NCBI GenBank assembly: GCA_000614405.2
Contig: GCA_000614405.2_3612.1
Reading direction: 5' to 3' (one strand)
Source of the DNA: Escherichia coli O157:H7 str. 2011EL-2287
GTDB taxonomy: Bacteria; Pseudomonadota; Gammaproteobacteria; Enterobacterales; Enterobacteriaceae
Length of the DNA: 64,000 nt
A program made the translations under genes and the position numbers. This document shows, piece by piece, positions 3 to 18,997 of the stretch. The notes below the pieces were generated by a model. It saw only the letters and a list, made by a program, of their open reading frames with translations. It was not told the origin of the DNA and searched no databases. Position 1 is the stretch's first letter, and every line of letters starts with the position of its first letter.

Positions 3-1373
3 GACCAGAACAACAATATGATGGGTGTTGATCCTCGACAGGTGAGAAGGATTTTAATACCGCTTATGCCTAAAGATTGGGTAAGCAATAGCACAAACCC
101 AAGAACGGAAAATGTAGAGTGTGAGTTGCGCCTAGATCTGCTTCAGCCAGACACAGGCTGGAAAATGATGCAACTTAACAATATTCAGGTGAAAGAACAC
201 GACGTTGGGATCTGCACAGCATATGACGATATGTGGAACGTGTCTCCTTTAAGGGTGTTGAACAATATCAAGCGTCTGGGCTATACCGGAACCATAAACC
301 ACTATGTTGGTATGAGTCATTATTATGACTACACATGGTCAGGAACCCAATGGTCTATAAACAGAACAGGGGCGCTAAACGCTGCAGCTTATAAATGGCA
401 TGATGATTTTATGTACAATGCCAAACGACATAACTTCGACGTTATGCAGTCTGTAAGTTTTGAGCTTTACAGCGATGCCTGCCCGTTGGAATGGACCCAA
501 AGAGACTGGAATGATAACTACGCTAAAACAGGATATACACCTTGTAGCTACCTCCTGTCTCCAACCATTGAAGAGGGTATGAATTTCCTTACGGCAGTAT
601 TTAAGAATTTTGCATCAGCCGCTATGAGAAACAACCTGCCAGTGATTATGCAGGTTGGTGAACCGTGGTGGTGGTTCAATACCGATACTCGTAGACCTTG
701 TATTTATGATTACCCTACAAAACAGGCGTTTTATGATGAGACAGGTGAGTATGCATTAGATATTGGGACTATTGACGATCCTAAAACTGGCGGTGTTTAC
801 GACAAGTATGTAGCATTTTGTCGTGGTAAGCTTGGCGCTCGTATTGCGGCTATTTCAAAGGCAATAAAGGCACACGCTGCATCAGCTCAGATGACAGCTC
901 TGCTGTTTTTCCCAACCATTATGGAAACCGAGCTTACGCAAAAGCTGAACCTTGCTGACCAATATAAAAAAGAAGCAGGTGCTCTTGATTTCTTCTGCAC
1001 CGAGTGCTACGATTGGGTGATGCAGGGAGGTATTGAAAAGGCAAAAGAGTCTGTAAACATACCTATCGTTAAGCTAGGTTGGCAACCGTCTGAAATACAA
1101 TACCTTGCAGGGTTCGTTCCTAGTAAAGAGCTTGCTCCGGTATATGGATACGACCCAACTAGGAATTACCAAGAATTTTTATGGAGATGTATTTGCGGAA
1201 ACATGGCAACTATAGAGTATAGATACCCTGAGGTAAAACAGTATGTGTGGGCATACCCGCAAGTAATGTCTGACAGCATCACTGTTACCGCTAGAGATTC
1301 TACCGTGCTTCATATGGGGCAGGTTGCTCTGAAAGGGTATGTAGAAGATGTTGTCCCGCCAGACTTCTCATAA
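3..1373 (+). CDS. virion structural protein (tail/baseplate-associated), 5'-partial
   Basis: Reading frame is open to the window start; lies directly upstream of the tail-fibre genes; no catalytic motif recognised. Confidence 0.4.
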   Translation, partial: DQNNNMMGVDPRQVRRILIPLMPKDWVSNSTNPRTENVECELRLDLLQPDTGWKMMQLNNIQVKEHDVGICTAYDDMWNVSPLRVLNNIKRLGYTGTINHYVGMSHYYDYTWSGTQWSINRTGALNAAAYKWHDDFMYNAKRHNFDVMQSVSFELYSDACPLEWTQRDWNDNYAKTGYTPCSYLLSPTIEEGMNFLTAVFKNFASAAMRNNLPVIMQVGEPWWWFNTDTRRPCIYDYPTKQAFYDETGEYALDIGTIDDPKTGGVYDKYVAFCRGKLGARIAAISKAIKAHAASAQMTALLFFPTIMETELTQKLNLADQYKKEAGALDFFCTECYDWVMQGGIEKAKESVNIPIVKLGWQPSEIQYLAGFVPSKELAPVYGYDPTRNYQEFLWRCICGNMATIEYRYPEVKQYVWAYPQVMSDSITVTARDSTVLHMGQVALKGYVEDVVPPDFS

Positions 1374-1385
1374 TCAGGAGATAAA

Positions 1386-2426
1386 ATGTCAAAACCTAGT
1401 TTTCCATTAGAGATTTGGGCAGAGGAGGATCAGGTTCTGCCTAACACCCACAGACAGAACAGGCTACGCCCGATTGATGATTTGTGGAGAAAAGGTTGGG
1501 ATCTTGGTCAAAAGCCCTCATGTGAAGAACTTAACTATATTTTCAATATGCTCGGAACTTGGGCAAAATACATTGCTGACGAGCAGATCCCCGCTCAAGA
1601 AGGCCGTTATCTGGTACGTGATAATAACTTGAGTGATCTTTTGAACATCCCTGTTGCCCGTAGAAACCTTGGGATTATTACTAAGGAAGAGGCAGACGCC
1701 AGGTATGTAAAAGTTACAGGTGATACAATGACAGGCCCATTGGGTTTGCAGCGTATCAACTTTAAAGCTGCCGAGACAGATAAGGCTTGGATAGAGACAA
1801 CTATTGGCCCAGATAAGACAACTCTCGACTTTGGGTTAAGTGATAATACTGGGTCGTTTGATGATGGTGGTACATCTACGGTAGATGCGTTTCGTTGGAG
1901 ATTCCAGCCAACTCAGCCGGATATTAATCCAGAGTTCACTTTGATGTACCTTAACGCGATCACGGCTAACCGTGCGCTGTTGAAAGTGGTAGGCAATGTT
2001 GAAGTTGTCGATAACATGAGGTGCAATAACCTTACTATCAGCAATACAGCAACATTCACCAACTGTAATGTGGCTAGTCAGTTGACGACTGGGTCAGTGT
2101 ATGTTAATGGTGGTGCAAGTTGTGACAGTATGGTTGTAAGAAGTCAGCACTGTGTTGTCGGTAACAGAAATGTGGTGCGCTCTGTGAATGGAGTGACGGC
2201 TAACGGTAACGGTGATGTAACAATCACTATCCCGCAGACAGGTGTGCAAGACATCAGAATCGGTGCAAGACTTGTTGACGGCGTTTCTGAATCTCCAATT
2301 CGCAACGGCTACGTTGTCACAGGCTGGCATTTCGGTGACAAAAAAGAGATGCGTGGTTCAACCTACTGGGCAGGACCTTTACAAAAACTTGTAAATGGTC
2401 AATGGATCACTGTTAATTATGCATAG
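1386..2426 (+). CDS. tail fibre protein, paralog 1
   Basis: NLSDL..ARRNLG and GDTMTG tail-fibre motifs; C-terminus LQKLVNGQWITVNYA shared with ORF 3441-4484; AGGAGA RBS. Confidence 0.7.
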   Translation: MSKPSFPLEIWAEEDQVLPNTHRQNRLRPIDDLWRKGWDLGQKPSCEELNYIFNMLGTWAKYIADEQIPAQEGRYLVRDNNLSDLLNIPVARRNLGIITKEEADARYVKVTGDTMTGPLGLQRINFKAAETDKAWIETTIGPDKTTLDFGLSDNTGSFDDGGTSTVDAFRWRFQPTQPDINPEFTLMYLNAITANRALLKVVGNVEVVDNMRCNNLTISNTATFTNCNVASQLTTGSVYVNGGASCDSMVVRSQHCVVGNRNVVRSVNGVTANGNGDVTITIPQTGVQDIRIGARLVDGVSESPIRNGYVVTGWHFGDKKEMRGSTYWAGPLQKLVNGQWITVNYA

Positions 2427-3440: not shown

Positions 3441-4484
3441 ATGACTAAACCAGTTATCCCTCTTGATATTTGGGCCAATCAGGATGTTGTGCTTGAAAAT
3501 ACGGGAGAGTTGAATAAGTCTCAACCAAAAAAAGAAGAGAGATTGAAAGGTTGGGATATGACACAAAGAGTGGCATGTGAAGTTGTTAACTTTGAACTTC
3601 ACATGCTTTCTGCGTGGTTAAAGCATCTAACAGAAGATGTTGTCCCAGGATGGGATAATAGATTCTTAAGGGTCACTAATAATCTAGCAGACGTTCCAGA
3701 CAAAGCTGCTGCACGTCAAGTTCTCAATGTATACTCGCCTGAAGAAATGGACGATCTGTATGTTGACAAGTCTGGAGACATAATGACTCAGACTCAAACT
3801 TTAGGTCTTCAAAGAATCGAGTTTGCATCTGCGTCAACAGACAATGCGGCAATATATACCACCATAACTCCAGACAAGACGACGATGGATTTCTGGATTA
3901 TGGACAACATCGGTGGTGCTGACGGCACAGACCTTGATGATCCTTCTCACCAAATAGACGGGTTCCGTTGGAGATTTCAACCTTCTGGTGGGCAGCCTGT
4001 GTTTTCGGCTATGAAGCTCAATGCTATAACTGCCAACCGTGCAAGACTGGCCATCCAAGGAAATCTTGAATGCAACGATGCAAAAAGTTCCTCTGCAAAT
4101 GCCAATGCGGTCACGATACCAAGAGCCACTGTTAACGGACAACAATCCTGCGGAAGCGCTCAAATAGGTGGAAGAGTTGATTGTAACGATGAAACAGTCA
4201 GGGGTCAATATGCAACAGTTGGTGGAAGAAACGTGGTCCGCAGGGTAAATGGTAACGGCGCAGACAGTAGTGGTAACCTTACTATCCCTATGCCCAGCAG
4301 AGGGGTTGATGATGTAAGGATAGCAAACCGTTTCAAAACCACCTACAGAGAGTCAAGAGTCTACCCTGGACATGTGATGTGCTCTGGTAACTACGCTTAT
4401 AAACACCCTTATCAAGGTGATTACTGGACAGGTGCTATCCAAAAACTTGTAAATGGTCAATGGATCACTATATCTTATGCTTAA
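3441..4484 (+). CDS. tail fibre protein, paralog 2
   Basis: N-terminus and C-terminus (AIQKLVNGQWITISYA) parallel ORF 1386-2426; NNLADV..AARQVLN and GDIMTQ motifs; divergent central region. Confidence 0.7.
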   Translation: MTKPVIPLDIWANQDVVLENTGELNKSQPKKEERLKGWDMTQRVACEVVNFELHMLSAWLKHLTEDVVPGWDNRFLRVTNNLADVPDKAAARQVLNVYSPEEMDDLYVDKSGDIMTQTQTLGLQRIEFASASTDNAAIYTTITPDKTTMDFWIMDNIGGADGTDLDDPSHQIDGFRWRFQPSGGQPVFSAMKLNAITANRARLAIQGNLECNDAKSSSANANAVTIPRATVNGQQSCGSAQIGGRVDCNDETVRGQYATVGGRNVVRRVNGNGADSSGNLTIPMPSRGVDDVRIANRFKTTYRESRVYPGHVMCSGNYAYKHPYQGDYWTGAIQKLVNGQWITISYA

Positions 4485-4771: not shown

Positions 4772-6517
4772 ATGGCGCAAGACATGACAAGCTTTGAGCA
4801 GGCGGTAGATCAAGTAATTGTTGATTCTGAACGTTTGCACTTGGTTGTCAACGGTAACGCTGTGGATGAAGTTGTCGTAGAGGATGGGACCACCATCCCT
4901 ACGGTACGAAAAGCCATGCTTGACAACCTTTATTTTAAAACGCCACCGATCCCTTGGGCGTATGGTGCATCCACAACAGTTTTTAACCAGCTGTACGAGT
5001 TTAAAGGGGACACAGGCCCTCAGTGGTGGTACGCTCCCGCAGCATCAAAATCTAACCCGGTTAGAATGCCAGCAGATCCTTCACAATCTCCAAACTGGAG
5101 ATTATATACCGACTCTGCAGTAATGGCAAAATACTACGCAAAACTTAACAGCCCGAGGTTCGAAGGTGACCCACGAGTACCTACACCTCCAATGGACGAT
5201 AAGTCAGAGTCCATAGCAAACACAGAGTTTGTTGTTGACTATGTTGATAGCATATTTAAAGCCATGGAGGGGATGAAAGTTACTGTAGGGTCTTTGGTGG
5301 TAAAAGGTCTTACAGAACTCGCTAACACTATAGTTGGTGGCACCCTTACCTTACATGGACCTGTTAATGGGGCAGATTCTACTGCACGCTTTAGGAATCT
5401 AATCCTCACGGCAAATACTTCTACACTTACTTTTGCGTGGAGCGATCCTAAGCATGCAGACTGGAGAAGTACAGAGCTGCAACCTCATGAAGTGTCCACC
5501 CACAGGGTTATAGCTGACACTATAACTTCTGGGAAACCAGTGGCTAATAATAACGATGTGCATTTTGATGGTCTGGGTAATAACTTTTTTGACTACGTGT
5601 ACATTCGTGGTAATGCCATGAAGGCAGCAACCGAACCGACATTGCAGGTCGATGGGACCACCAGGGTTAAGAACCTTGAGGTGACAGGTACCGTTACAGG
5701 GATAACATACTCTGTCGATGGCACCATGATCTACCCTAGCTATATTGAAAGCACGGGTGATGCATTGATAAATGGCGATTTGGAGGTTGGCGGGTCTGTA
5801 GTTATTCGAGGTACAGCCTCTATCCAAAATATAGCTCTGAATACTCTAAGAGTCAATGAGCGTGCAACTTTTGAAGGAGAAGGGCTTACAGCCAATAAAG
5901 GTACAATTACCGAGCTAACCACCACCACTTTAACTGCAACAACTGCAAACTCTGAAAACTGCAACATTACCAGAAACTTGCAGGTAAATGGAGATGTTAG
6001 TTTAAACGCCGCAGGGACTGGCACCACCCACCTTCACAACCTTGAAATATCCGGCACAGTGACCGGGTGGCTGCCAGACTTCTCTAATGTCAACTTTGTC
6101 TGTAATGGCATTAACTCCAGTGGTAAGATAACCACCTCTCAAGAAATTGAGGCGGGTAAAACCATTACTGCCCCTACTTTCCACGCAGGAAAGGTAGATT
6201 TTGACTTAGAGGAGGTTGACGCGTCCAGTGGGACATGGACACCTAACGGGCAGGCCAGCATGTATGTTGTCCACTCGAAAGGGGATTTTACAATAGGACA
6301 GTGGCCTGGGACATCAGCGGAAGATAAACCTTATCCATTCACTGCAGTTATCTATGTCATTCAGGATGCTGTAGGTCACAACGTGACTTTGCACGATAAG
6401 TATGCTATCCTGTCGGCAACACCTGTTATTAACAACAAGGCTAACAGTGTTACCTTGCTGCAATTAACGTATTGTGGTGTTGGTGATATTGTAGACGTAG
6501 TAATTGCACAACGTTAA
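4772..6517 (+). CDS. beta-rich tail fibre / tail spike-like protein
   Basis: Repetitive Thr/Gly/Val-rich segments (VTGTVTG, TTTTLTATTAN) typical of fibre shafts; located in tail module. Confidence 0.5.
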   Translation: MAQDMTSFEQAVDQVIVDSERLHLVVNGNAVDEVVVEDGTTIPTVRKAMLDNLYFKTPPIPWAYGASTTVFNQLYEFKGDTGPQWWYAPAASKSNPVRMPADPSQSPNWRLYTDSAVMAKYYAKLNSPRFEGDPRVPTPPMDDKSESIANTEFVVDYVDSIFKAMEGMKVTVGSLVVKGLTELANTIVGGTLTLHGPVNGADSTARFRNLILTANTSTLTFAWSDPKHADWRSTELQPHEVSTHRVIADTITSGKPVANNNDVHFDGLGNNFFDYVYIRGNAMKAATEPTLQVDGTTRVKNLEVTGTVTGITYSVDGTMIYPSYIESTGDALINGDLEVGGSVVIRGTASIQNIALNTLRVNERATFEGEGLTANKGTITELTTTTLTATTANSENCNITRNLQVNGDVSLNAAGTGTTHLHNLEISGTVTGWLPDFSNVNFVCNGINSSGKITTSQEIEAGKTITAPTFHAGKVDFDLEEVDASSGTWTPNGQASMYVVHSKGDFTIGQWPGTSAEDKPYPFTAVIYVIQDAVGHNVTLHDKYAILSATPVINNKANSVTLLQLTYCGVGDIVDVVIAQR

Positions 6518-6565
6518 TATATCTAACCGCTCCTGACGGGGCGGTTTTCTTATCTGGAGAACACA

Positions 6566-9500
6566 ATGCTTCCAATCCCTTTGCTAAAACTTGGTCGTCA
6601 TTTCCTCGATAAGAGGGGTGGAATTAAGGAACTTGCTGTTCTGTCATACCCAATAGACAACAGTGATGGTACAAGCAACACAGTATCCTATGTAAATAGC
6701 TTAGCTATACTTTTTGATGATGGTCAGCTTAATATTACTGGCTATAATAGGTTCGGAGAGTGTCGGACTGGAGATCTTGATACAATAAACTATCCTAATG
6801 AGGCAGCTTGGAACGTAGACCATGTTTGGAGAGCTGACCGTGCATTTGTAATCCGCACATTCGATAATAAATTTTTCTATATTGGTTGCACAGCTGGTCT
6901 TATCGGATCGGAGGCAGCAGGTGGAAACGATGTTTGTGTCAGAGAGTGGACACCTTTGCCGGAACAGATCGTAACAGGGTTGCATTTGGACACCCATCCT
7001 GAGAGACTTGTTGAAGTAATGGGTGGCGTAAACAATACAGTGTGGGTAATTGCTGCACCAGAGGCTGATGGTATGCTTCACCTGTACGGCTCTGGCAATA
7101 ATACTTACGGCTCTCTTCATGTTGACAAAAGTCAACACGCTACTCCAGTTAAGATAGGTGAAACATCTGAAAGTCCAGAGACAGGTCCTTGGAAAAATCC
7201 AAGAATTAATTGTGAAGTTCATGACAACTCGGTTATTTTTGGTGGTCCTAACGGATTCTGGATTGCAGGTTATGATTTCTTAAGAAATAACAGCAAAAAC
7301 ACACTAGTTTATCCAGCCGAGCATGTGACTCTTGACCAGTTTAAAGGCATCCCGGTGGGCGAGACATGGAAAGGGTTCATGTGTGGACCTAATGGTGCAA
7401 TTATAGCCACAGAAAGGATGCACAAACCTGATGACCAACAGCTTGTTAATGTGTTTTATGGTCAGGATGTTTGGGGTGACGACACGTGGAGAAGCCTTAA
7501 CATCACCTATACCCATGAAGTAATTATGGCTCGCGGGTACGGGACTAGTGGAATTTTCTTCAATAATGGTACAAAACAGTACCGTGGTTTCTCCAGAAAC
7601 CTGTGTAACGATATTGGTGCTCAATCTGCTAATAATAGTCCTAGGGCCAATTTTATTCATTACAGAGCGCTGGCAACAGCTAAGTTTGTTGAACAGACAG
7701 AGCCAGTAAGCTGGACAGAAAGCGTTTATTTTCAAGGGATCCACAGGGAAGGTTTCTTAGGCACATTCTGTGTGGTAAATGGAAAGCTTTGGTGGTCAGG
7801 AATACCACGTGGTAGTTTTTCAGGATCTAATAACCTCTTTGGCGGCAGACTTAACAGCCAAGGGTTCACAGAGATTCCGGAGAATTGGTATAAAAATGTC
7901 CCGGTAGATAGCTGGGGTATCGAAGACATCTTTGATGTCAATGGTGTGAGCAATGTTAGCAACATTTACATCGGAGATACTGTCAAGATGAAATTGAAAC
8001 CTCAGCCGGAGGGTGCTACGTTCATTATTGACAAGATTGAGTTGGTAAATGCTGCAGGCACTGTTGTTACAGATGCAAACTATCAGTTCTCCACTAACTG
8101 GAACCATGGTGGTGCTAACGAAGTTGTGGTCACCCAGTATAACCGTAACATCAACAGACGTGGTTTGTATTCTATCAAGATCACCTACCATGACAAGCAT
8201 GGCACTGGAAGAACCTATACGACAAGGACTTTGAACTGGAACACTATAGTTCCTGCGTATCCGTCCAACGGCAAGTGGCATACCGTTGGTAGAAACAAGC
8301 AGTTCCATGTTAACGATACTGTATACTTTGGGCTGAATGGGACCCAGCCTGCAGTAGAAGGGGATACATCGTATATGGTCAGACTCCACAGAATGGATGC
8401 TGGATCAGTCACTTATGATGTGACCCAAGAGATCTACGATCAAAGACGCGCCACGTATGACAATATTGTGAAAACACAAGCCTTGTGGGAGTTCAATCCT
8501 AATGGCAAGGGTGGTAAAATGTTGCAGGTTAATGAGCAGAACGGAACGTCGTTGACTGTTCACGAACACCCAGACCCTTGGCCTGATCCTGGAAAACCTC
8601 ACCCGGGAGCTCGTACACTGAAAATTGTCAGCCATGATGCAGGATATTTCGGAATACGCTGGGAAGCTACAGTAAGATATGTCGACGGGACAACAAACAA
8701 CATAGGGATTACACTTGGCGGCACTAGTGAAGATAACTCGCTGAAAATTGCCTACACGCCCAGAGGTATCTCTATTGATAATATGGATGTTGTTCGCAAT
8801 GGCTACGGCGATGTGAATGTCAAAGTTACTCTTGGCGAACATCTTGGTGGGGAAAGGATCATCATGTATGCCTTTGATCATGATCCACGCACCAATGGAA
8901 CTTATGCAAATCAGGCATGGAGTTACCTGATAAATGCACCTGAGCCGAATACTAAAGAGTTCTACTATGGTATGAAGCGAGATGTGTGCAAGAAAACAGG
9001 AACACATGACTGGATTGCTATCTGCGTTAAAGATGAGCGCACAGCTTGGGATGAGCCTGTTAACAGATGGTTCATAGGTATTCCTACCAGAAGTGATAAG
9101 TATGTCGCAGAATATATTGTATGCATGGGCGGTACCAACCTAAACATGTGTTGGAACGAAGATGTAAACAAATACTCTGATTATGACTATATGAGGGATT
9201 ACTCTTGTAATTTGTGGTTTAACCAAACTACAGGTTACCCTCCAAGACAGGCAAGGGTAAATCCTGCAATCTTTACAGATACTCAGGTTTTCTTGACAAA
9301 ACAGGCAAACGAGGTTCAGACCTTCAAGAATAACTATGACCCTAACAAGTGGTTCTATAATTGTTACGGGGCATACTTTTGGGGGCCTGCTGAACTGCCT
9401 GACAGCGGTTCTTGCTTCGAGGCTGCAACCTACGGCAGCGACTATATCATGGGACAGGTCAAGAAGTACAAGATGATCCCAGGGCCTGAAACTTTAGGTA

Positions 9501-12202
9501 ACGCTGTTGACCCATACATAAATTTCGCAGCTTTGCATGCGAATATGGATGGTGCAAGGTATCCGTTCGACGTTCCAGTTGCCAATGGGTACAAACGTGT
9601 TGTGATGATCATTAAGTGCGACCTGATAGGTAAACAAGTTCTTGCAGAAAACGGGACATCCACACATCCTTTTGAGATCGCTCTGCACTATCAGTTTGCT
9701 GACTCACCTTTTGCAGGGGATAAGAGAATATCTGATACAGACGCACAGCGTTGTAAGAAAGTATTGTTGGGTGCAGGTTGGTGGTGGTATGAGTTTGATT
9801 TAACAGATAAGTTCACAGATGATACCAAGACTCTCACAGGTATCCGTCTGGATCTTGGTGAGAACATGCACAAAGCTGTTTGTGATGGCACCTACGGTGA
9901 TCCTACAGTATACTTGAAGTATGTCTCTCTTGAGCATCCAGAGGATGCCGTAATCGGTCCTAAACTGAAATTATTCGGCGCATGGATTGCCAAGGATAGA
10001 GTAGGTATGGGTAAGAAAGTGAGAGGATTCCTGATAGATGCAGGAACAGAGGACATGCTGGTTAATGCAGTGTGGCCTACGCTAGAAGGAACTGCCTACA
10101 ACAATGCAGCCAGGTCTATAAATTGGTTCAACATTCACAGAGCTATGTGGACTACCAACTGCTACTTGTGGAGAGAGCTCAACGATCAGGCCTTTGGCTT
10201 TAGTAACGGCAGAAGGATGGCGATCATCTGCTGGACAACACTGCAAAGATGTTATGACCATGACTACGAGATTGGCGGTAGAGCATGGAAAGATATCCGA
10301 GATAGAATCATATACAATTTTGCAGATGATAATGGTGGCGGGGCATATAACTTTGGCACAAGCCGACTTATCCACTTGAACGGATCTTCAGCCTACAAGA
10401 AAGAAGGTTACTCTGGATCCATGATCGAGTGGGGTCTGGTGAAAGATGCTCGCGTATTGATGGGCCAGCAACTTGCTGCCGCAATAGGTCCCAGCGCAGT
10501 GCAGTCGGTTAAACCAGCGTGGTTTGATATTCCATTGTGGTCACCCGGAACACCGGGAACTGCTGCAATCAACCCTACCACTGGGGATCTAGAAATCTCC
10601 TGGGAGGACTTGAAGCAGGTCGGCGGTTGGGACAAAACAGGGTATCAGGTTCAGTGGTGGAGAGCTGATGGATCTTTAGCTGCTGATGAGTTTGTTAAGG
10701 ACAATTTCTACACTATGTCCTCTGCAAAAGCACAGCAATTATTTGGTCAGGCCACTCCGTCAACAATCACCATGTCTATGTGCTGTAAAGACAACAGGAC
10801 TGGAGCTTTGGGGCCAAGGGTTGCTAAGGTTTTCTCAGGTATTAAATGGAATCTTCCTGTTCAAAGTGTTTCATGGAAGCAAATAGGTGATAACAAGCTG
10901 CTGGTTACCCCTGCCTGTCAGTTCAACGCAACTCTTAACGTTAATCCTGCTGTTGCGGCAAACTCAGCTAAAGCTTCTGACTTCTCTGTGTCTAACACCG
11001 CTATGGCAGATGTGAGGAAGATTGACACACTGAACGCCAGAATTACCTGTAAAAACACTTATGGCACATTCCAGATCATCAACAACTTCACAGATGCTGA
11101 TTCTAAGGTAGTGAGGACAGCAAGCCAGACTTTGAGTTTAGGAACTCTGGCCTATGCGGCCCTGATCACTGAACAGTCGGCAACACTCCAAGGAGGTGGT
11201 GTAGGCAAGTCCATTACAACACCTGTGTGGAAGCCAAATGAGTGGGTTGTGTTTGATTTGACTGTGGACTTCTCCAGCGATAATAACTGGACATGGGTAA
11301 GGAATTGTTTGTCACAGTTGATGGGCGGTCCAAGCTCCGTTAGTGATAGTCACGACTCTACTGACCCGAGTGTGTTCCAGGTAGGTAAAACTCACCCAGA
11401 GACTGGAGAAACGTTGCCTGACAGGAAGTATGCTTTGGTTTGCATCTCTTACGGAAAAGCAGATGTCACCTTCTCAGGGACACACACTTATAACGGAACT
11501 TACAACTTCTCAAGGAAGTATAGTCTCAAAGCAGGGAACATTATAGACGAGGTTGGTGTGCTGTATAATCCGGGCAACGGCATAGGGATTGTTGGTGGTA
11601 AACTGCAGATGCAGGAACCTTCTATTACCCCTTCCAACGTAGCCGGGATTAGAAAGACTTGGGAAAGTAGTAATACCAACATTGCAACAGTGGATGCCAC
11701 CACAGGACTGGTAACATTTAAAGCTACTGGGAATGTCACCATAAAGTTTGTAGTTACTGATGATGCAGGGCGCAAAACGTCTTCAACATCTTTTACTGTC
11801 AAACAGATGGCACCACAGTGGAGAATGTGGATAGGTACAGCAACAAACGGGGCATACCCTAATCCGGCAGGTACTTCTGGTATGAAGACTTTCTCTACAA
11901 GCAAACCGATGGAGTACGGCAGCGGTCCTAAGGTAGGGCAGATGGTGTACTTTGGTGCGTATATTCCTGAAATTATAGGGCTTCCGAGAAGTCAGCTTCA
12001 GTTGCTGTTTGGGGCTGGTGTTGACGATCTTGCCACTTTCGGGTATAGCGACAACATCGAGGCTGCAAGGAGTTCAGGATGGGTAGGGTTCAGAATGGAG
12101 CCTGGAAAGGAAGGCAGGATTCTAGGGACAGCCTCTATAGGTGTTATGTTCCCTGGTGACCAGCAGTATCGTCTAGAAGCCTACGCAACCTTTTCTCGTT
12201 AA
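6566..12202 (+). CDS. giant virion/tail-associated protein with Ig-like (Big_2-type) domain
   Basis: 1878-aa ORF; Ig-like segment (TWESSNTNIATVDATTGLVTFKATGNVTIKFVVTDDAG); N-terminal Gly-rich repeats; last gene of late operon. Confidence 0.55.
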   Translation: MLPIPLLKLGRHFLDKRGGIKELAVLSYPIDNSDGTSNTVSYVNSLAILFDDGQLNITGYNRFGECRTGDLDTINYPNEAAWNVDHVWRADRAFVIRTFDNKFFYIGCTAGLIGSEAAGGNDVCVREWTPLPEQIVTGLHLDTHPERLVEVMGGVNNTVWVIAAPEADGMLHLYGSGNNTYGSLHVDKSQHATPVKIGETSESPETGPWKNPRINCEVHDNSVIFGGPNGFWIAGYDFLRNNSKNTLVYPAEHVTLDQFKGIPVGETWKGFMCGPNGAIIATERMHKPDDQQLVNVFYGQDVWGDDTWRSLNITYTHEVIMARGYGTSGIFFNNGTKQYRGFSRNLCNDIGAQSANNSPRANFIHYRALATAKFVEQTEPVSWTESVYFQGIHREGFLGTFCVVNGKLWWSGIPRGSFSGSNNLFGGRLNSQGFTEIPENWYKNVPVDSWGIEDIFDVNGVSNVSNIYIGDTVKMKLKPQPEGATFIIDKIELVNAAGTVVTDANYQFSTNWNHGGANEVVVTQYNRNINRRGLYSIKITYHDKHGTGRTYTTRTLNWNTIVPAYPSNGKWHTVGRNKQFHVNDTVYFGLNGTQPAVEGDTSYMVRLHRMDAGSVTYDVTQEIYDQRRATYDNIVKTQALWEFNPNGKGGKMLQVNEQNGTSLTVHEHPDPWPDPGKPHPGARTLKIVSHDAGYFGIRWEATVRYVDGTTNNIGITLGGTSEDNSLKIAYTPRGISIDNMDVVRNGYGDVNVKVTLGEHLGGERIIMYAFDHDPRTNGTYANQAWSYLINAPEPNTKEFYYGMKRDVCKKTGTHDWIAICVKDERTAWDEPVNRWFIGIPTRSDKYVAEYIVCMGGTNLNMCWNEDVNKYSDYDYMRDYSCNLWFNQTTGYPPRQARVNPAIFTDTQVFLTKQANEVQTFKNNYDPNKWFYNCYGAYFWGPAELPDSGSCFEAATYGSDYIMGQVKKYKMIPGPETLGNAVDPYINFAALHANMDGARYPFDVPVANGYKRVVMIIKCDLIGKQVLAENGTSTHPFEIALHYQFADSPFAGDKRISDTDAQRCKKVLLGAGWWWYEFDLTDKFTDDTKTLTGIRLDLGENMHKAVCDGTYGDPTVYLKYVSLEHPEDAVIGPKLKLFGAWIAKDRVGMGKKVRGFLIDAGTEDMLVNAVWPTLEGTAYNNAARSINWFNIHRAMWTTNCYLWRELNDQAFGFSNGRRMAIICWTTLQRCYDHDYEIGGRAWKDIRDRIIYNFADDNGGGAYNFGTSRLIHLNGSSAYKKEGYSGSMIEWGLVKDARVLMGQQLAAAIGPSAVQSVKPAWFDIPLWSPGTPGTAAINPTTGDLEISWEDLKQVGGWDKTGYQVQWWRADGSLAADEFVKDNFYTMSSAKAQQLFGQATPSTITMSMCCKDNRTGALGPRVAKVFSGIKWNLPVQSVSWKQIGDNKLLVTPACQFNATLNVNPAVAANSAKASDFSVSNTAMADVRKIDTLNARITCKNTYGTFQIINNFTDADSKVVRTASQTLSLGTLAYAALITEQSATLQGGGVGKSITTPVWKPNEWVVFDLTVDFSSDNNWTWVRNCLSQLMGGPSSVSDSHDSTDPSVFQVGKTHPETGETLPDRKYALVCISYGKADVTFSGTHTYNGTYNFSRKYSLKAGNIIDEVGVLYNPGNGIGIVGGKLQMQEPSITPSNVAGIRKTWESSNTNIATVDATTGLVTFKATGNVTIKFVVTDDAGRKTSSTSFTVKQMAPQWRMWIGTATNGAYPNPAGTSGMKTFSTSKPMEYGSGPKVGQMVYFGAYIPEIIGLPRSQLQLLFGAGVDDLATFGYSDNIEAARSSGWVGFRMEPGKEGRILGTASIGVMFPGDQQYRLEAYATFSR

Positions 12203-12218: not shown

Positions 12219-12250
12219 AAAAGGGGCCAAACGGCCCCTTTCTTTTTATA
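12219..12250. terminator. bidirectional rho-independent terminator
   Basis: Hairpin AAGGGGCC-AAAC-GGCCCCTT flanked by T-run on + strand and A-run (T-run on - strand); sits between convergent clusters. Confidence 0.6.
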
Positions 12251-16459: not shown

Positions 16460-17941
16460 TTACTTAGCGTACTCGATTAATTCCACAGTTTTCCCAAAGC
16501 TAGGGATATAATTTTTATTATACCCTTCGGTGAGAACCCATAAAGTATCGTACTTTTTCCACTTGTTGTCAACAGCCTTTTGTTCAAAGTTATGCTCAAA
16601 GTATAGGTCGGTCAGGACGATGACATCTTTTGCATTCGGTATGTTGGCATCCAGATACTCGAACACGCAAGCAGCTGTTGTGCCCCATGTTGAGTGTACC
16701 TCATAGTTGATCATCTCGTCTATGTTGCCGCGAGTGTATACTTTAACCTCTCCGACTTCAGTTGACCAACAGAACATTGTAACCTTAAACTCTTTATACA
16801 GATTGCACAATCCGGTGATTTCATTGAACATTTTCTTTAAAGTTCTTTGAGAGATCGAGCCAGAAACGTCTAAAGCTACCACAATATCTATGGTGTTTTC
16901 CGGATTACGACCAGGAACAATAACGTGCTGGTTCTTGTTTATAGCCCCAACTTTTCGCATTGTGCTGGTCAAAGACCCAGATCGGCGACCAGGTTTTCTG
17001 TAGGTCAGTTCAGCCTTTCGTTTAGACAACATGCGTTGCTTGATGATGTCTATATAATTAATTACAGGCTTACCTCTATTCTTGACAAACTCACGAACCG
17101 CCTCAGGGCAACGGCCTCCGGAAGCTTGCATTGCTGCCTCCAGCATGTCACCAGAGTCCTGCATGGCCTGATCTTTATCAGATTGACTGATTACAGGTTG
17201 TGGCTGATCATACCCCATAGCCTTTCCAAGATCATCACTGGTGCCACCGTTACCACTCATGTGATCATCGGTTTGTCGCTTATCTTCTTGAGAGTTCTCA
17301 CCTTTACCGCTCTTACTTTTACCGTTATTCTGATCTCTTTGCTTATCAAGAACTGCATAAACGTTCTCAGCAATCCATCCATGAAACTTCATGTCGCAGT
17401 AGCAGCTGGCTAAGAAGCCAAAAGGCTTACCTTTCACGAACGTAGTGCTTTTCCCCTTCGAGAAGAAAACACAAGGAGGTTTGCTAAAGTCAACCACAAG
17501 GCCTGTGTTGATAACGTGATCACAAGCAATATTGAACAGTTCCGGCTCAAAGCTTTTACCACGGACCAGGTGATCACAGATAATATGCCCCACCTCATGC
17601 GACAGAAGAAAGGCCACCTCTTTCACAGATTTGGGGGAATAGAAAACCTCAGCCATCTCAAACTGCTTGTCAGTTAGAGAGGCCTTAAGAATAGCCTTGC
17701 GTTCATCAGCCAATCCCATAATGAACTCAGGGCTGTAATAGATGCGTTTATGGTCGGTTGCCATGGTGGAGCACCATGTGTGGTTTTCTACGAACTGCAA
17801 CCCTGACAGCAGTGTGCCATAAAACGGCAGCTTTTCAAGGAGATACATACGTGCAGCCTGCAACATTCTCAGGGCATCATCTTTCTGTGAGGCAACGATT
17901 TCTGAACTTCTGCTATCCATTAAAACTCCAGAAGGGGCCAT
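16460..17941 (-). CDS. vWA-domain protein with N-terminal HExxH metallopeptidase-like domain (DUF2201-type)
   Basis: HEVGHIICDH zinc-binding motif in N-terminal half; MIDAS motif IVVALDVSGSI in C-terminal half. Confidence 0.75.
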   Translation of the reverse strand: MAPSGVLMDSRSSEIVASQKDDALRMLQAARMYLLEKLPFYGTLLSGLQFVENHTWCSTMATDHKRIYYSPEFIMGLADERKAILKASLTDKQFEMAEVFYSPKSVKEVAFLLSHEVGHIICDHLVRGKSFEPELFNIACDHVINTGLVVDFSKPPCVFFSKGKSTTFVKGKPFGFLASCYCDMKFHGWIAENVYAVLDKQRDQNNGKSKSGKGENSQEDKRQTDDHMSGNGGTSDDLGKAMGYDQPQPVISQSDKDQAMQDSGDMLEAAMQASGGRCPEAVREFVKNRGKPVINYIDIIKQRMLSKRKAELTYRKPGRRSGSLTSTMRKVGAINKNQHVIVPGRNPENTIDIVVALDVSGSISQRTLKKMFNEITGLCNLYKEFKVTMFCWSTEVGEVKVYTRGNIDEMINYEVHSTWGTTAACVFEYLDANIPNAKDVIVLTDLYFEHNFEQKAVDNKWKKYDTLWVLTEGYNKNYIPSFGKTVELIEYAK

Positions 17942-17953
17942 TGGCCCCTGTCA

Positions 17954-18997
17954 TTATTTAACGTGTTTGAAAATACCTGCCAACTCGGTCATTGTCATGC
18001 GGGTGGTCTTCATAAGATCTGTCATAGCTTTCTCCATAATTGGAGATACTACCATAAAGTTTCCTTTAGTGAAACCTTTATTCCAGTCAGTCACCAACAG
18101 CGGTTTAAGTCCAGCTCCGAGACGTTCACCAGTTAAAGCACAGCATTTGCGAATATACGAACCCTTAAATTGGCTGAACGACAGATCAACTTTCATACCT
18201 GCATCGTAGAACGTTTGACAATAGAAAGTGTAAGCCTTAGCAATCTCAACATCATCAGGCAGTGCAGGAACCTCTTCTGCAATCTCCTCTTCGACCTCCT
18301 GAGGCTCTTTTTCTTCTTCAGAGGTCTGTTCTTCAATTTCTTCTGTCACAGTCTCGTTTACGATGTCTGAAATGTGTTTGTTGGCTGCACGATCAGCCAT
18401 GAAATTTTTAAAATCCTGCATCGGTGACATATCTTCTTCCTCTTCGTCAAATAGTGCTAGTTTATCTTCTTCTGTCCCGTATTGCAAGATGAAATCTTCA
18501 AAAGTATAATCACCTTTCAATTTCTCCATACGCTCTTCGCTCAGGTGGAGCATCATCTGCTGGACAATTTTTCGATCAGTTTTGTCTTTAATCAGGATTG
18601 CAGTCTTTTTATCTACCAGACAGTCTTTCAGAGCATTGCACCTCAACCCTACCACACAACAATTGTCAATTGCGTAAGGACCTTCATCATCTATACGCTC
18701 CAGAGATGGGTAGAAAGGATTTCCCAGCCCGTTTTCATCTGTGTGCATGTCAAAAGGTATAAGGGTATAGTCGCATACTCCATCTCCTAAAAGTTTTTTA
18801 CCAAATAGGAGGTATTCTTCCCATGACAGGTCGAACTCTATATCTCGTTTCCGTGCGTTATTCTGTTTGCGTCTATATTTTTTGAGCAAGCGCTCTAACT
18901 CTTCTGGTGTATAATATTTTTCAAGATTCATGAGTCGTCTCTCGTGCTCTGTAAGTGAAGAAATCGTATCAATTGTCTCAACAGATGTCAACATCAA
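17954..18997 (-). CDS. HNH-like nuclease-fold protein with acidic linker
   Basis: SLERIDDEGPYAIDNCCVVGLRCNALK resembles HNH/His-Me finger core; long Glu-rich linker; second related C-terminal segment. Confidence 0.45.
   Translation of the reverse strand: MMLTSVETIDTISSLTEHERRLMNLEKYYTPEELERLLKKYRRKQNNARKRDIEFDLSWEEYLLFGKKLLGDGVCDYTLIPFDMHTDENGLGNPFYPSLERIDDEGPYAIDNCCVVGLRCNALKDCLVDKKTAILIKDKTDRKIVQQMMLHLSEERMEKLKGDYTFEDFILQYGTEEDKLALFDEEEEDMSPMQDFKNFMADRAANKHISDIVNETVTEEIEEQTSEEEKEPQEVEEEIAEEVPALPDDVEIAKAYTFYCQTFYDAGMKVDLSFSQFKGSYIRKCCALTGERLGAGLKPLLVTDWNKGFTKGNFMVVSPIMEKAMTDLMKTTRMTMTELAGIFKHVK

Follow-up and report, generated by a model that had tools for sequence, protein, structure and literature searches.

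A giant multi-domain protein gene at the end of the fibre operon of an rV5-like coliphage: domain map, cassette exchange and a possible role as accessory adhesin

We analysed a 64,000 nt stretch of DNA (the window) from contig GCA_000614405.2_3612.1 of the Escherichia coli O157:H7 str. 2011EL-2287 assembly (GCA_000614405.2). The window belongs to a Vequintavirus (rV5-like coliphage), and our subject is the giant gene at positions 6566..12202, which encodes a protein of 1878 aa and closes the fibre operon of this phage. We give roughly an even chance to the reading that the virion carries the protein, in low copy number, as a large accessory adhesin that is not essential. This reading is favoured because the gene occupies the last place in the late baseplate/fibre operon in Vequintavirus, in two metagenomic relatives, in Seunavirus and in phAPEC8-like phages; because the N-terminus matches phrog_4219, the family of abundant virion proteins of phage W70; because the protein displays a conservation gradient with a mosaic centre and a replaceable tip; and because structural matches obtained with Foldseek were to Ig/FN3/cadherin/S-layer arrays, an ice-binding adhesin and Hoc-like proteins. 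A non-essential role is supported by tolerance of transposon insertions on E. coli K-12 and by broken gene copies in phages ime, Alma and V18, whilst a low copy number is suggested by a conserved upstream terminator-like hairpin together with marginal detection of the ortholog in rV5 virions.

The gene itself is already known and does not represent a new kind of system, having been annotated in more than 100 deposited genomes and probed by transposon sequencing. Our analysis adds a domain map, an RCC1-like anchor that extends across genera, an orphan cassette module and a pair of terminator-like sites that bracket the gene.

Identity and domain organization of the giant protein

The open reading frame (ORF) runs on the plus strand from ATG to TAA and encodes a protein of 208.4 kDa with a pI of 6.2. 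The chance of 1878 stop-free codons at the base composition of the window is ~4e-51. Substitutions relative to rV5 gp27 numbered 68, 44 and 268 at codon positions 1, 2 and 3, respectively, and the ratio of nonsynonymous to synonymous substitution rates (dN/dS) along the gene was 0.05–0.08. Because of this codon-position bias and low dN/dS, the frame is evidently coding, translated and under purifying selection, and the single uninterrupted 5.6-kb ORF described in an earlier note made from the DNA sequence is a real gene. The same note had mentioned many antisense shadow ORFs, and six minus-strand ORFs of 97–200 aa do overlap the gene. All but one of these share the codon register of the main frame, and the sense codons TTA, CTA and TCA, which are needed for in-register antisense stops, are rare (32 of 1879 codons). 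We therefore rejected these antisense ORFs as genes and regard them as the usual shadow artefact.

The DNA of the giant gene matched 121 phage records, 108 of them with at least 80 % coverage at 80–99 % nucleotide identity, and nearly all of those 108 were rV5-like coliphages of the genus Vequintavirus. The match to PHROG family phrog_15684 was full-length and collinear, spanning residues 1–1878 of 1878 (E 0). The gene is the ortholog of rV5 gp27 (YP_002003529) and of bas58_0041 and bas54_0041 of the BASEL collection. Existing labels are 'Ig-like domain-containing protein' for rV5 gp27 and 'lateral tail fiber protein with intimin domain' for the two BASEL genes. We also observed that 15–16 GenBank records named 'Campylobacter phage' (MG065635, MG065654, MG065666 and others; 135–143 kb) are 92–96 % identical to the giant gene; their host is given as Campylobacter jejuni for all but one, and this host assignment or naming looks doubtful.

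The coding sequence (CDS) and the domains of its product were mapped as follows, where AF2 denotes AlphaFold2 models and pLDDT their predicted local distance difference test score.

6566..12202, plus strand: CDS of the 1878-aa protein, ortholog of rV5 gp27, phrog_15684
6566..7915, plus strand: RCC1-like repeat domain, presumed beta-propeller, aa 1–450 (profile similarity, conservation)
7916..9085, plus strand: about 3–4 Ig/FN3-like beta-sandwiches, aa 451–840 (aa 449–565, ~570–730 and 735–840; AF2, Foldseek)
9086..10555, plus strand: orphan alpha/beta module, aa 841–1330 (phmmer, PDB profile, AF2)
9266..10465, plus strand: allelic cassette, aa 901–1300 (synonymous divergence, identity bands)
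10556..10855, plus strand: FN3-like beta-sandwich, aa 1331–1430 (weak Pfam fn3 match; AF2 all beta, pLDDT 50–75)
10856..11611, plus strand: more Ig-like beta-sandwiches, aa 1431–1682 (AF2 beta)
11612..11764, plus strand: Big_2 bacterial Ig-like domain, aa 1683–1733 (PF02368, E 9e-8)
11813..12199, plus strand: C-terminal tip domain, aa 1750–1878 (phrog_215 'structural protein with Ig domain', E 1e-15)

The first 450 residues resemble RCC1-like proteins. A profile built from this region and from the positional orthologs in other genera described below returned 24 matches in the PDB, of which 23 were RCC1-like proteins (best HERC1 at 5.2e-9, HERC2 at 1e-7, RPGR at 4e-5 and UVR8 at 1e-4). RCC1 and RCC1-like domain (RLD) models matched the protein itself below their curated cut-offs (PF25390, 20.3 bits vs 150, E 4e-4; RCC1_2, 13.8 bits vs 22). 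The weak PF25390 signal recurred in 12 of 16 family members, and two of the orthologs, 4MG_038 (36.9 bits) and EF1-1 gp176 (23.8 bits), exceeded the PF00415 cut-off of 21.7. PHROG matches of this region were to phrog_4219 ('regulator of chromosome condensation', E 1.1e-7) and phrog_11922 (E 3e-28). The predicted RCC1-like character of aa 1–450 is thus statistically supported through the profile and the homologs, whilst the propeller fold is presumed, given a poor AF2 model over this region (pLDDT 20–60). Seven candidate blades were counted by eye, and self-comparison of the region with hhalign displayed no significant internal repeat. The N-terminal Gly-rich repeats of the earlier note correspond in part to these findings: RCC1-like repeats with conserved glycines are present in aa 1–450, but glycine itself, at 8–13 % there vs 9.8 % overall, is not enriched.

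The remainder of the protein was modelled with AF2 together with the N-terminus, in two parts (aa 1–840 and aa 841–1878) from alignments of 16–17 sequences. Mean pLDDT was 49 and 53, respectively, and at this low confidence Foldseek results are usable for domain class only. All matches listed for the non-propeller parts were tandem Ig, FN3, cadherin and S-layer arrays, an ice-binding adhesin of bacterial origin, or phage structural proteins decorated with Ig domains, Hoc among them. For aa 451–840, predicted secondary structure was nearly all beta (pLDDT 56–82 at aa 449–565 and 81–85 at aa 735–840) and tandem FN3/Ig arrays were matched over ~400 columns, with no sequence family matched in Pfam, PHROG segment or phmmer searches. 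Matches in the region of aa 1431–1682 were to cadherin, S-layer and Ig arrays; pLDDT there was 27–48 at aa 1430–1505 and 73–93 from aa 1590, and the stretch most divergent among distant homologs, with 12–24 % identity, lies within it at aa 1451–1600. The Big_2-type segment that the earlier note had recognized was recovered at aa 1683–1733 with 32.4 bits against a cut-off of 22.8. This segment is the 'intimin domain' of the BASEL annotation and gave a PDB intimin match with an E value of 0.004. Identity as an intimin/invasin was rejected, as NF033627 scored 22.4 bits against a cut-off of 1400 and matched only aa 1696–1734. A precomputed label, PF26918, appears beside Big_2 on the close homologs P0001, P0025 and P0026, its name and extent being unconfirmed.

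The orphan module at aa 841–1330 is predicted to consist of an alpha-rich part (aa 841–965), a beta-sandwich (aa 966–1125) and a second alpha-rich part (aa 1126–1330), with pLDDT of 60–85 in the sandwich and 22–45 in the helical parts. It contains invariant aromatic and charged residues, for example in DAGTEDMLVNAVWP, SINWFNxHRAMW and EGYxGSMIEWG. A phmmer search with aa 451–1430 against 1.84 billion representative proteins recovered the protein's own family only, plus weak FN3-type matches at aa ~1320–1390. Pfam searches with six segments (E up to 10), NCBIfam and PHROG segment searches yielded nothing for aa 451–1330 beyond the protein's own PHROG. A family profile of the central module matched nothing meaningful in the PDB, and PDB searches by sequence and by profile, whether started from the entire protein, from its family or from the central module, returned the Ig domain or noise only.

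Conservation gradient, cassette exchange and relatives in other genera

Conservation was profiled from homologs of 45–57 % identity on phage-sized contigs of 110–142 kb, and the operon position of the gene was kept in both distant metagenomic contigs examined. Identity was ~75 % over aa 1–450, moderate and mosaic over aa 450–1450 and 35–45 % over aa 1600–1850, with aa 1450–1600 barely alignable. The N-terminus thus remained ~75 % identical in homologs that were only 12–50 % identical further along. Two homologs, P0011 and P0014, end before aa 1750–1878 and are without the C-terminal Ig module. Word-indexed searches from the N-terminus and from the C-terminus recovered near-identical fragments only, leaving the alignments no deeper.

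Within Vequintavirus, the giant gene displayed 92–94 % nucleotide identity vs 97–100 % for its neighbours. Divergence was concentrated in a cassette encoding aa 901–1300, where synonymous divergence (dS) was 1.36–1.42 vs 0.005–0.03 in aa 1–600, with dN/dS of 0.07–0.08 (window vs rV5 or HeinrichReichert). Protein identity of the cassette to rV5, Bas58 and Bas54 was 72–90 %. Amongst 115 phage records, identity to the 1.2 kb cassette of the window was 95–99 % in 2, 90–95 % in 11, 80–90 % in 76 and 60–80 % in 26; the nearest was FFH2 at 96.7 %, and most records fell at 80–90 %. The C-terminal tip also varies, phage MaxBurger carrying a different allele with identity of 44–76 %. The low dN/dS and saturated dS led us to reject positive selection as an explanation for the variable centre. 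Because the cassette combines these two properties, its pattern indicates recombination of old alleles, whereby an anciently diverged allele was brought in. Such exchange is typical of host-recognition modules. The conserved N-terminus, the central allelic cassettes and the variable C-terminal tip together bear out the evolutionary pattern of a host-facing protein.

The orphan module could instead house the active centre of a virion-borne enzyme, a depolymerase or glycan-modifying protein acting through aa 841–1330. Invariant Asp, Glu, His, Arg, Tyr and Trp residues are dense in the module across homologs of 45–57 % identity, neighbouring fibre genes carry glycan-active domains, and the helical parts might form an alpha/alpha fold like that of some lyases and hydrolases. 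We nonetheless regard an enzyme as improbable. No catalytic family was found in Pfam, NCBIfam, PHROGs or the PDB by sequence or profile, and the 1.84 billion representatives contained no relative beyond the family. Amongst the best 50 Foldseek matches per search there was no beta-helix, sialidase or lyase, and a regular-expression search found no Asp-box. The earlier note had likened the protein to a depolymerase and had proposed looking for pectate-lyase or sialidase-like beta-helix folds, and neither idea is supported by these searches. Moreover, no other part of the gene is exchanged as freely as this module, as would be expected of a binding surface rather than of a conserved active site.

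Positional orthologs, i.e. genes that close the fibre operon ahead of the strand switch, were identified in Seunavirus (4MG_038, 567 aa; SSE121 gp048, 604 aa; EspYZU15_31, 570 aa) and in the phAPEC8/ESCO13-like phage EF1-1 (gp176, 890 aa). PVP-SE1 gp40, likewise of 604 aa, was found as a structural match only, and EF1-1 gp176 belongs to phrog_11922 'tail protein'. Identity of the positional orthologs to the window protein was 23–39 %, mostly over aa 1–207 (30–39 %) and aa 392–449, and an MxPIP start was invariant in the five proteins aligned. The best conserved region, aa 1–450, is the only one that the window protein has in common with them.

Operon setting and weighing of the functional readings

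The giant gene, ~4 % of the phage genome, keeps a conserved place as the last gene of the fibre operon, after a 581-aa gp28-like gene. The surrounding features of the window are listed below.

18..1373, plus strand: C-terminal part (451 aa) of a gp34-like fibre protein (PF23845, E 2.7e-80)
1386..2426 and 3441..4484, plus strand: short-tail-fibre paralogs of 346 and 347 aa
2441..3025, plus strand: fibre chaperone
4772..6517, plus strand: 581-aa gp28-like fibre protein, the last gene before the giant gene
6525..6546, plus strand: terminator-like GC-rich hairpin with U-rich tract (9 pairs, 6 of them GC; -14.9 kcal/mol, z -3.97)
6556..6559, plus strand: ribosome-binding site GGAG, 6 nt 5' of the ATG, read from the sequence
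12220..12241, plus strand: terminator-like hairpin with T-run at the operon end, at the convergent junction with a minus-strand block

Two small genes are also present in the upstream fibre cluster, and the chaperone and one small gene lie between the short-tail-fibre paralogs. The position at the end of a tail-fibre operon, as well as the multi-domain character given in the earlier note, is confirmed by the same-strand fibre, short-fibre and chaperone genes upstream, the strand flip downstream and the hairpin at 12220–12241. Several observations concern the neighbours. The product of 18..1373 carries an N4 gp65-type 'non-contractile tail sheath protein TIM barrel' (PF23845), and the short-tail-fibre paralogs, at 97–99 % identity to the rV5, Bas58 and Bas54 copies, are far less variable than the giant gene. 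In the metagenomic relatives L004 and L005, the gp28-like neighbour bears the precomputed, unconfirmed labels PF26208/PF26209 (Phage_phiTE_241_N/_C). L005 further carries a 369-aa gene (17189..18298, minus strand) with a YadA_anchor (PF03895, trimeric autotransporter adhesin membrane anchor); this gene follows the giant gene directly, within a group of small minus-strand genes, and is absent from the otherwise syntenic L004 and, judged by length, from the window.

No terminator-like site of the first 13 kb is stronger than the two at 6525–6546 and 12220–12241, which bracket the giant gene. Rho-independent terminators are annotated in rV5 at the place matching the downstream site. The upstream hairpin and U-run recur, with other stem sequences, in the two distant metagenomic relatives L004/L005 and in phages EF1-1 and 4MG, at ~9970–9996 in L004/L005, ~8962–8981 in L006 and ~5961–5984 in L007. 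The hairpin at 6525–6546 probably attenuates read-through into the giant gene, and its recurrence suggests that attenuation ahead of this operon-closing gene may be conserved.

This bracketing would also permit separate expression, as expected of a late protein outside the virion that acts in the cell or is released at lysis, for example as a decoy, aggregation or exclusion factor. The dispensability of the gene and the marginal, low-quality detection in rV5 virions agree with such a role. However, no signal peptide or membrane segment was found, the position at the end of a structural operon is kept across genera, the N-terminus is related to a PHROG family abundant in W70 virions, and the C-terminus matches phrog_215 'structural protein with Ig domain'; we hold a non-virion function to be quite unlikely. 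Regular-expression searches of the protein for Asp-boxes, collagen repeats and membrane segments yielded none.

In transposon sequencing of Bas54, disruptive insertions in bas54_0041 were tolerated on E. coli K-12 (bioRxiv 10.1101/2025.11.20.689424), and bas54_0041 is therefore dispensable for infective virions and growth on this host. The same HIDEN-SEQ study reports some Bas54 lateral fibre genes to be conditionally essential on clinical isolates. Broken copies of the giant gene were also observed in the deposited genomes of ime (L011, 2-nt deletion), Alma (L012, 1-nt deletion) and V18 (L013, several deletions), where they are annotated as two to four 'hypothetical proteins'; these may be natural or laboratory knock-outs, or sequencing errors.

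Host recognition in related phages has been assigned to other fibre genes. Sequence comparison and k-mer models have attributed recognition of the NGR glycan to the upstream gp34-like poly-N-acetylglucosamine (poly-GlcNAc) deacetylase fibre protein (bioRxiv 10.64898/2026.04.02.716166), and the product of 18..1373 in the window may be a fibre protein of similar type. The terminal receptor of phage LL12 was mapped genetically to the outer core of lipopolysaccharide, and the short tail fibres were proposed to bind it (PMC8594841). A 2026 structure paper on phi92 describes no homolog of the giant protein, and the W70 supplements do not mention the gene.

The BASEL label and the location in a fibre operon raise the alternative of a genuine trimeric lateral tail fibre that forms one of the three Vequintavirinae fibre sets and is the primary receptor binder on non-K-12 hosts. 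The allelic variation is of the kind that the BASEL authors ascribe to distal fibre proteins, and the conditional essentiality of some Bas54 lateral fibre genes on clinical isolates, reported in the preprint cited above, points the same way. Beta-propellers, moreover, occur within trimeric receptor-binding proteins such as endosialidases. The architecture of the giant protein argues against this alternative, since the chain begins almost directly with the RCC1-like domain, and no coiled coil, triple beta-helix, collagen repeat, N-terminal adaptor (PF18668 and the like) or S74 chaperone was found. For the adaptor, no virion-adaptor domain was matched in Pfam or PHROG, whilst a neighbouring EF1-1 fibre gene does match PF18668; for the trimerizing shaft and S74, no family or repeat was found, the helices being short and confined to aa 841–965 and 1126–1330 in the low-confidence models. 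A classical trimeric fibre, as the earlier note's fibre or receptor-binding protein might imply, is thus not what the domain searches recovered. The HIDEN-SEQ preprint text consulted does not name bas54_0041 among the conditionally essential genes. Nine fibre proteins are annotated in Bas54 and Bas49, and cryo-electron microscopy (cryo-EM) resolved densities for only three fibres (PMC12143355), the giant protein not being one of these. Taken together, these points render a trimeric fibre unlikely in our view.

An RCC1-like propeller joined to Ig/FN3 arrays is, by contrast with the trimeric arrangement, the domain set of monomeric surface adhesins. Established here or in published work are the gene with its position, the conservation gradient, the exchange of the cassette, the classes of domain and the dispensability; we infer for the accessory adhesin a monomeric state, attachment to the virion via the propeller, a ligand and attenuated expression. 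In the mechanism proposed, the conserved propeller would dock the protein to a conserved component of the baseplate or fibres. A thin, flexible chain of about ten Ig/FN3-type beta-sandwiches would then serve as a spacer of ~50–60 nm, a rough estimate from domain count, interrupted by the orphan alpha/beta module and ending in the Big_2 and tip domains. The exchanged module and the tip would reversibly contact variable glycans or structures of the host or gut environment, raising adsorption or widening host range. Infection of K-12 does not need the protein, which would help adsorption on some hosts only.

Several points weigh against the adhesin reading. In the mass spectrometry list for rV5 virions, gp27 is the penultimate entry, its 3 peptides (9 spectra) covering 3.1 % of the protein (PMC3606486, Table S5), all three peptides being non-tryptic or semi-tryptic and two having poor rank scores (PMC3606486); two of the three peptide sequences are present in the window protein. 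This constitutes weak evidence for the presence of gp27 in the virion, and virion association hence depends on three poor peptides of a 2013 data set together with homology and position. In the cryo-EM text consulted, the protein was not placed in the Bas54 or Bas49 structures (PMC12143355). Sequencing error might account for the single-base frameshifts of ime and Alma. As consensus matches, the terminator hairpins are predictions, and at the mean pLDDT of the AF2 models the same holds for the fold of the propeller, for a monomeric state and for the nature of the central module.

A more specific form of the adhesin reading, which we put forward as a tentative possibility, holds that the protein is a monomeric 'tentacle', with the propeller as a plug in the baseplate, an Ig chain and a swappable central module of undescribed glycan-binding (or catalytic) fold, conditionally essential on wild hosts or in mucus. 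On rV5, 'thin 70-nm fibres occasionally seen' have been recorded, and such a tentacle, if real, would explain them. If the docking role is true, accessory proteins of rV5-like virions would in general be docked through RCC1-like propellers. The rV5-like phages belong to the coliphages isolated most often, and biocontrol and therapy cocktails make use of them. Host recognition would be divided among their many fibre genes, and the domain map indicates where to look for conditional function as well as the piece to swap for host-range engineering.

Comparison with known systems

The closest counterparts are rV5 gp27 and its orthologs (bas58_0041, bas54_0041 and those of FFH2, JES2013 and others), which agree with the window protein in length, collinearity, position and neighbours. 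Identity to rV5 gp27 is 93.5 % at the nucleotide and ~96 % at the protein level, and protein identity to the ortholog in phage isim is 97.6 %. The difference from this group lies in the rarer allele of the central cassette (aa 901–1300) carried by the window. Amongst the positional orthologs of other genera, the two that were scanned, 4MG_038 and EF1-1 gp176, have an RCC1-like N-terminus followed by Big_2 domains, whilst the likeness of the SSE121 and EspYZU15 proteins comes from N-terminal homology. None has the orphan module or the additional Ig/FN3 domains, which amount to ~1200 aa. By sequence comparison, the Vequintavirus protein is an expanded form of a conserved 'RCC1-like plus Big_2' terminal gene.

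At the N-terminus, profile searches revealed a repeat signature in common with the RLDs of HERC1 and HERC2, with RPGR and UVR8, and with W70_237–239. The last are three stand-alone RCC1-like proteins of phage W70 (phrog_4219), detected with 141–233 spectra in purified virions (PMC11370258). They are proven virion components, and the N-terminus of the giant protein matches the same subfamily. Its blades are strongly diverged from known RCC1-like domains, so that the protein alone falls under the Pfam cut-offs, and the functions of cellular RCC1 proteins are unrelated.

Further along the chain, the Big_2 domain and the tandem beta-sandwich arrays recall T4 Hoc, Ig-tagged major tail and capsid proteins, and intimin/invasin. 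Ig-like accessory domains on phage structural proteins have been proposed to act as weak carbohydrate binders (Fraser et al. 2006, cited in PMC7344957). With intimin, the giant protein has only one Ig domain in common; compared with Hoc, it is far larger, is encoded in a tail operon and carries both a putative propeller and an orphan module.

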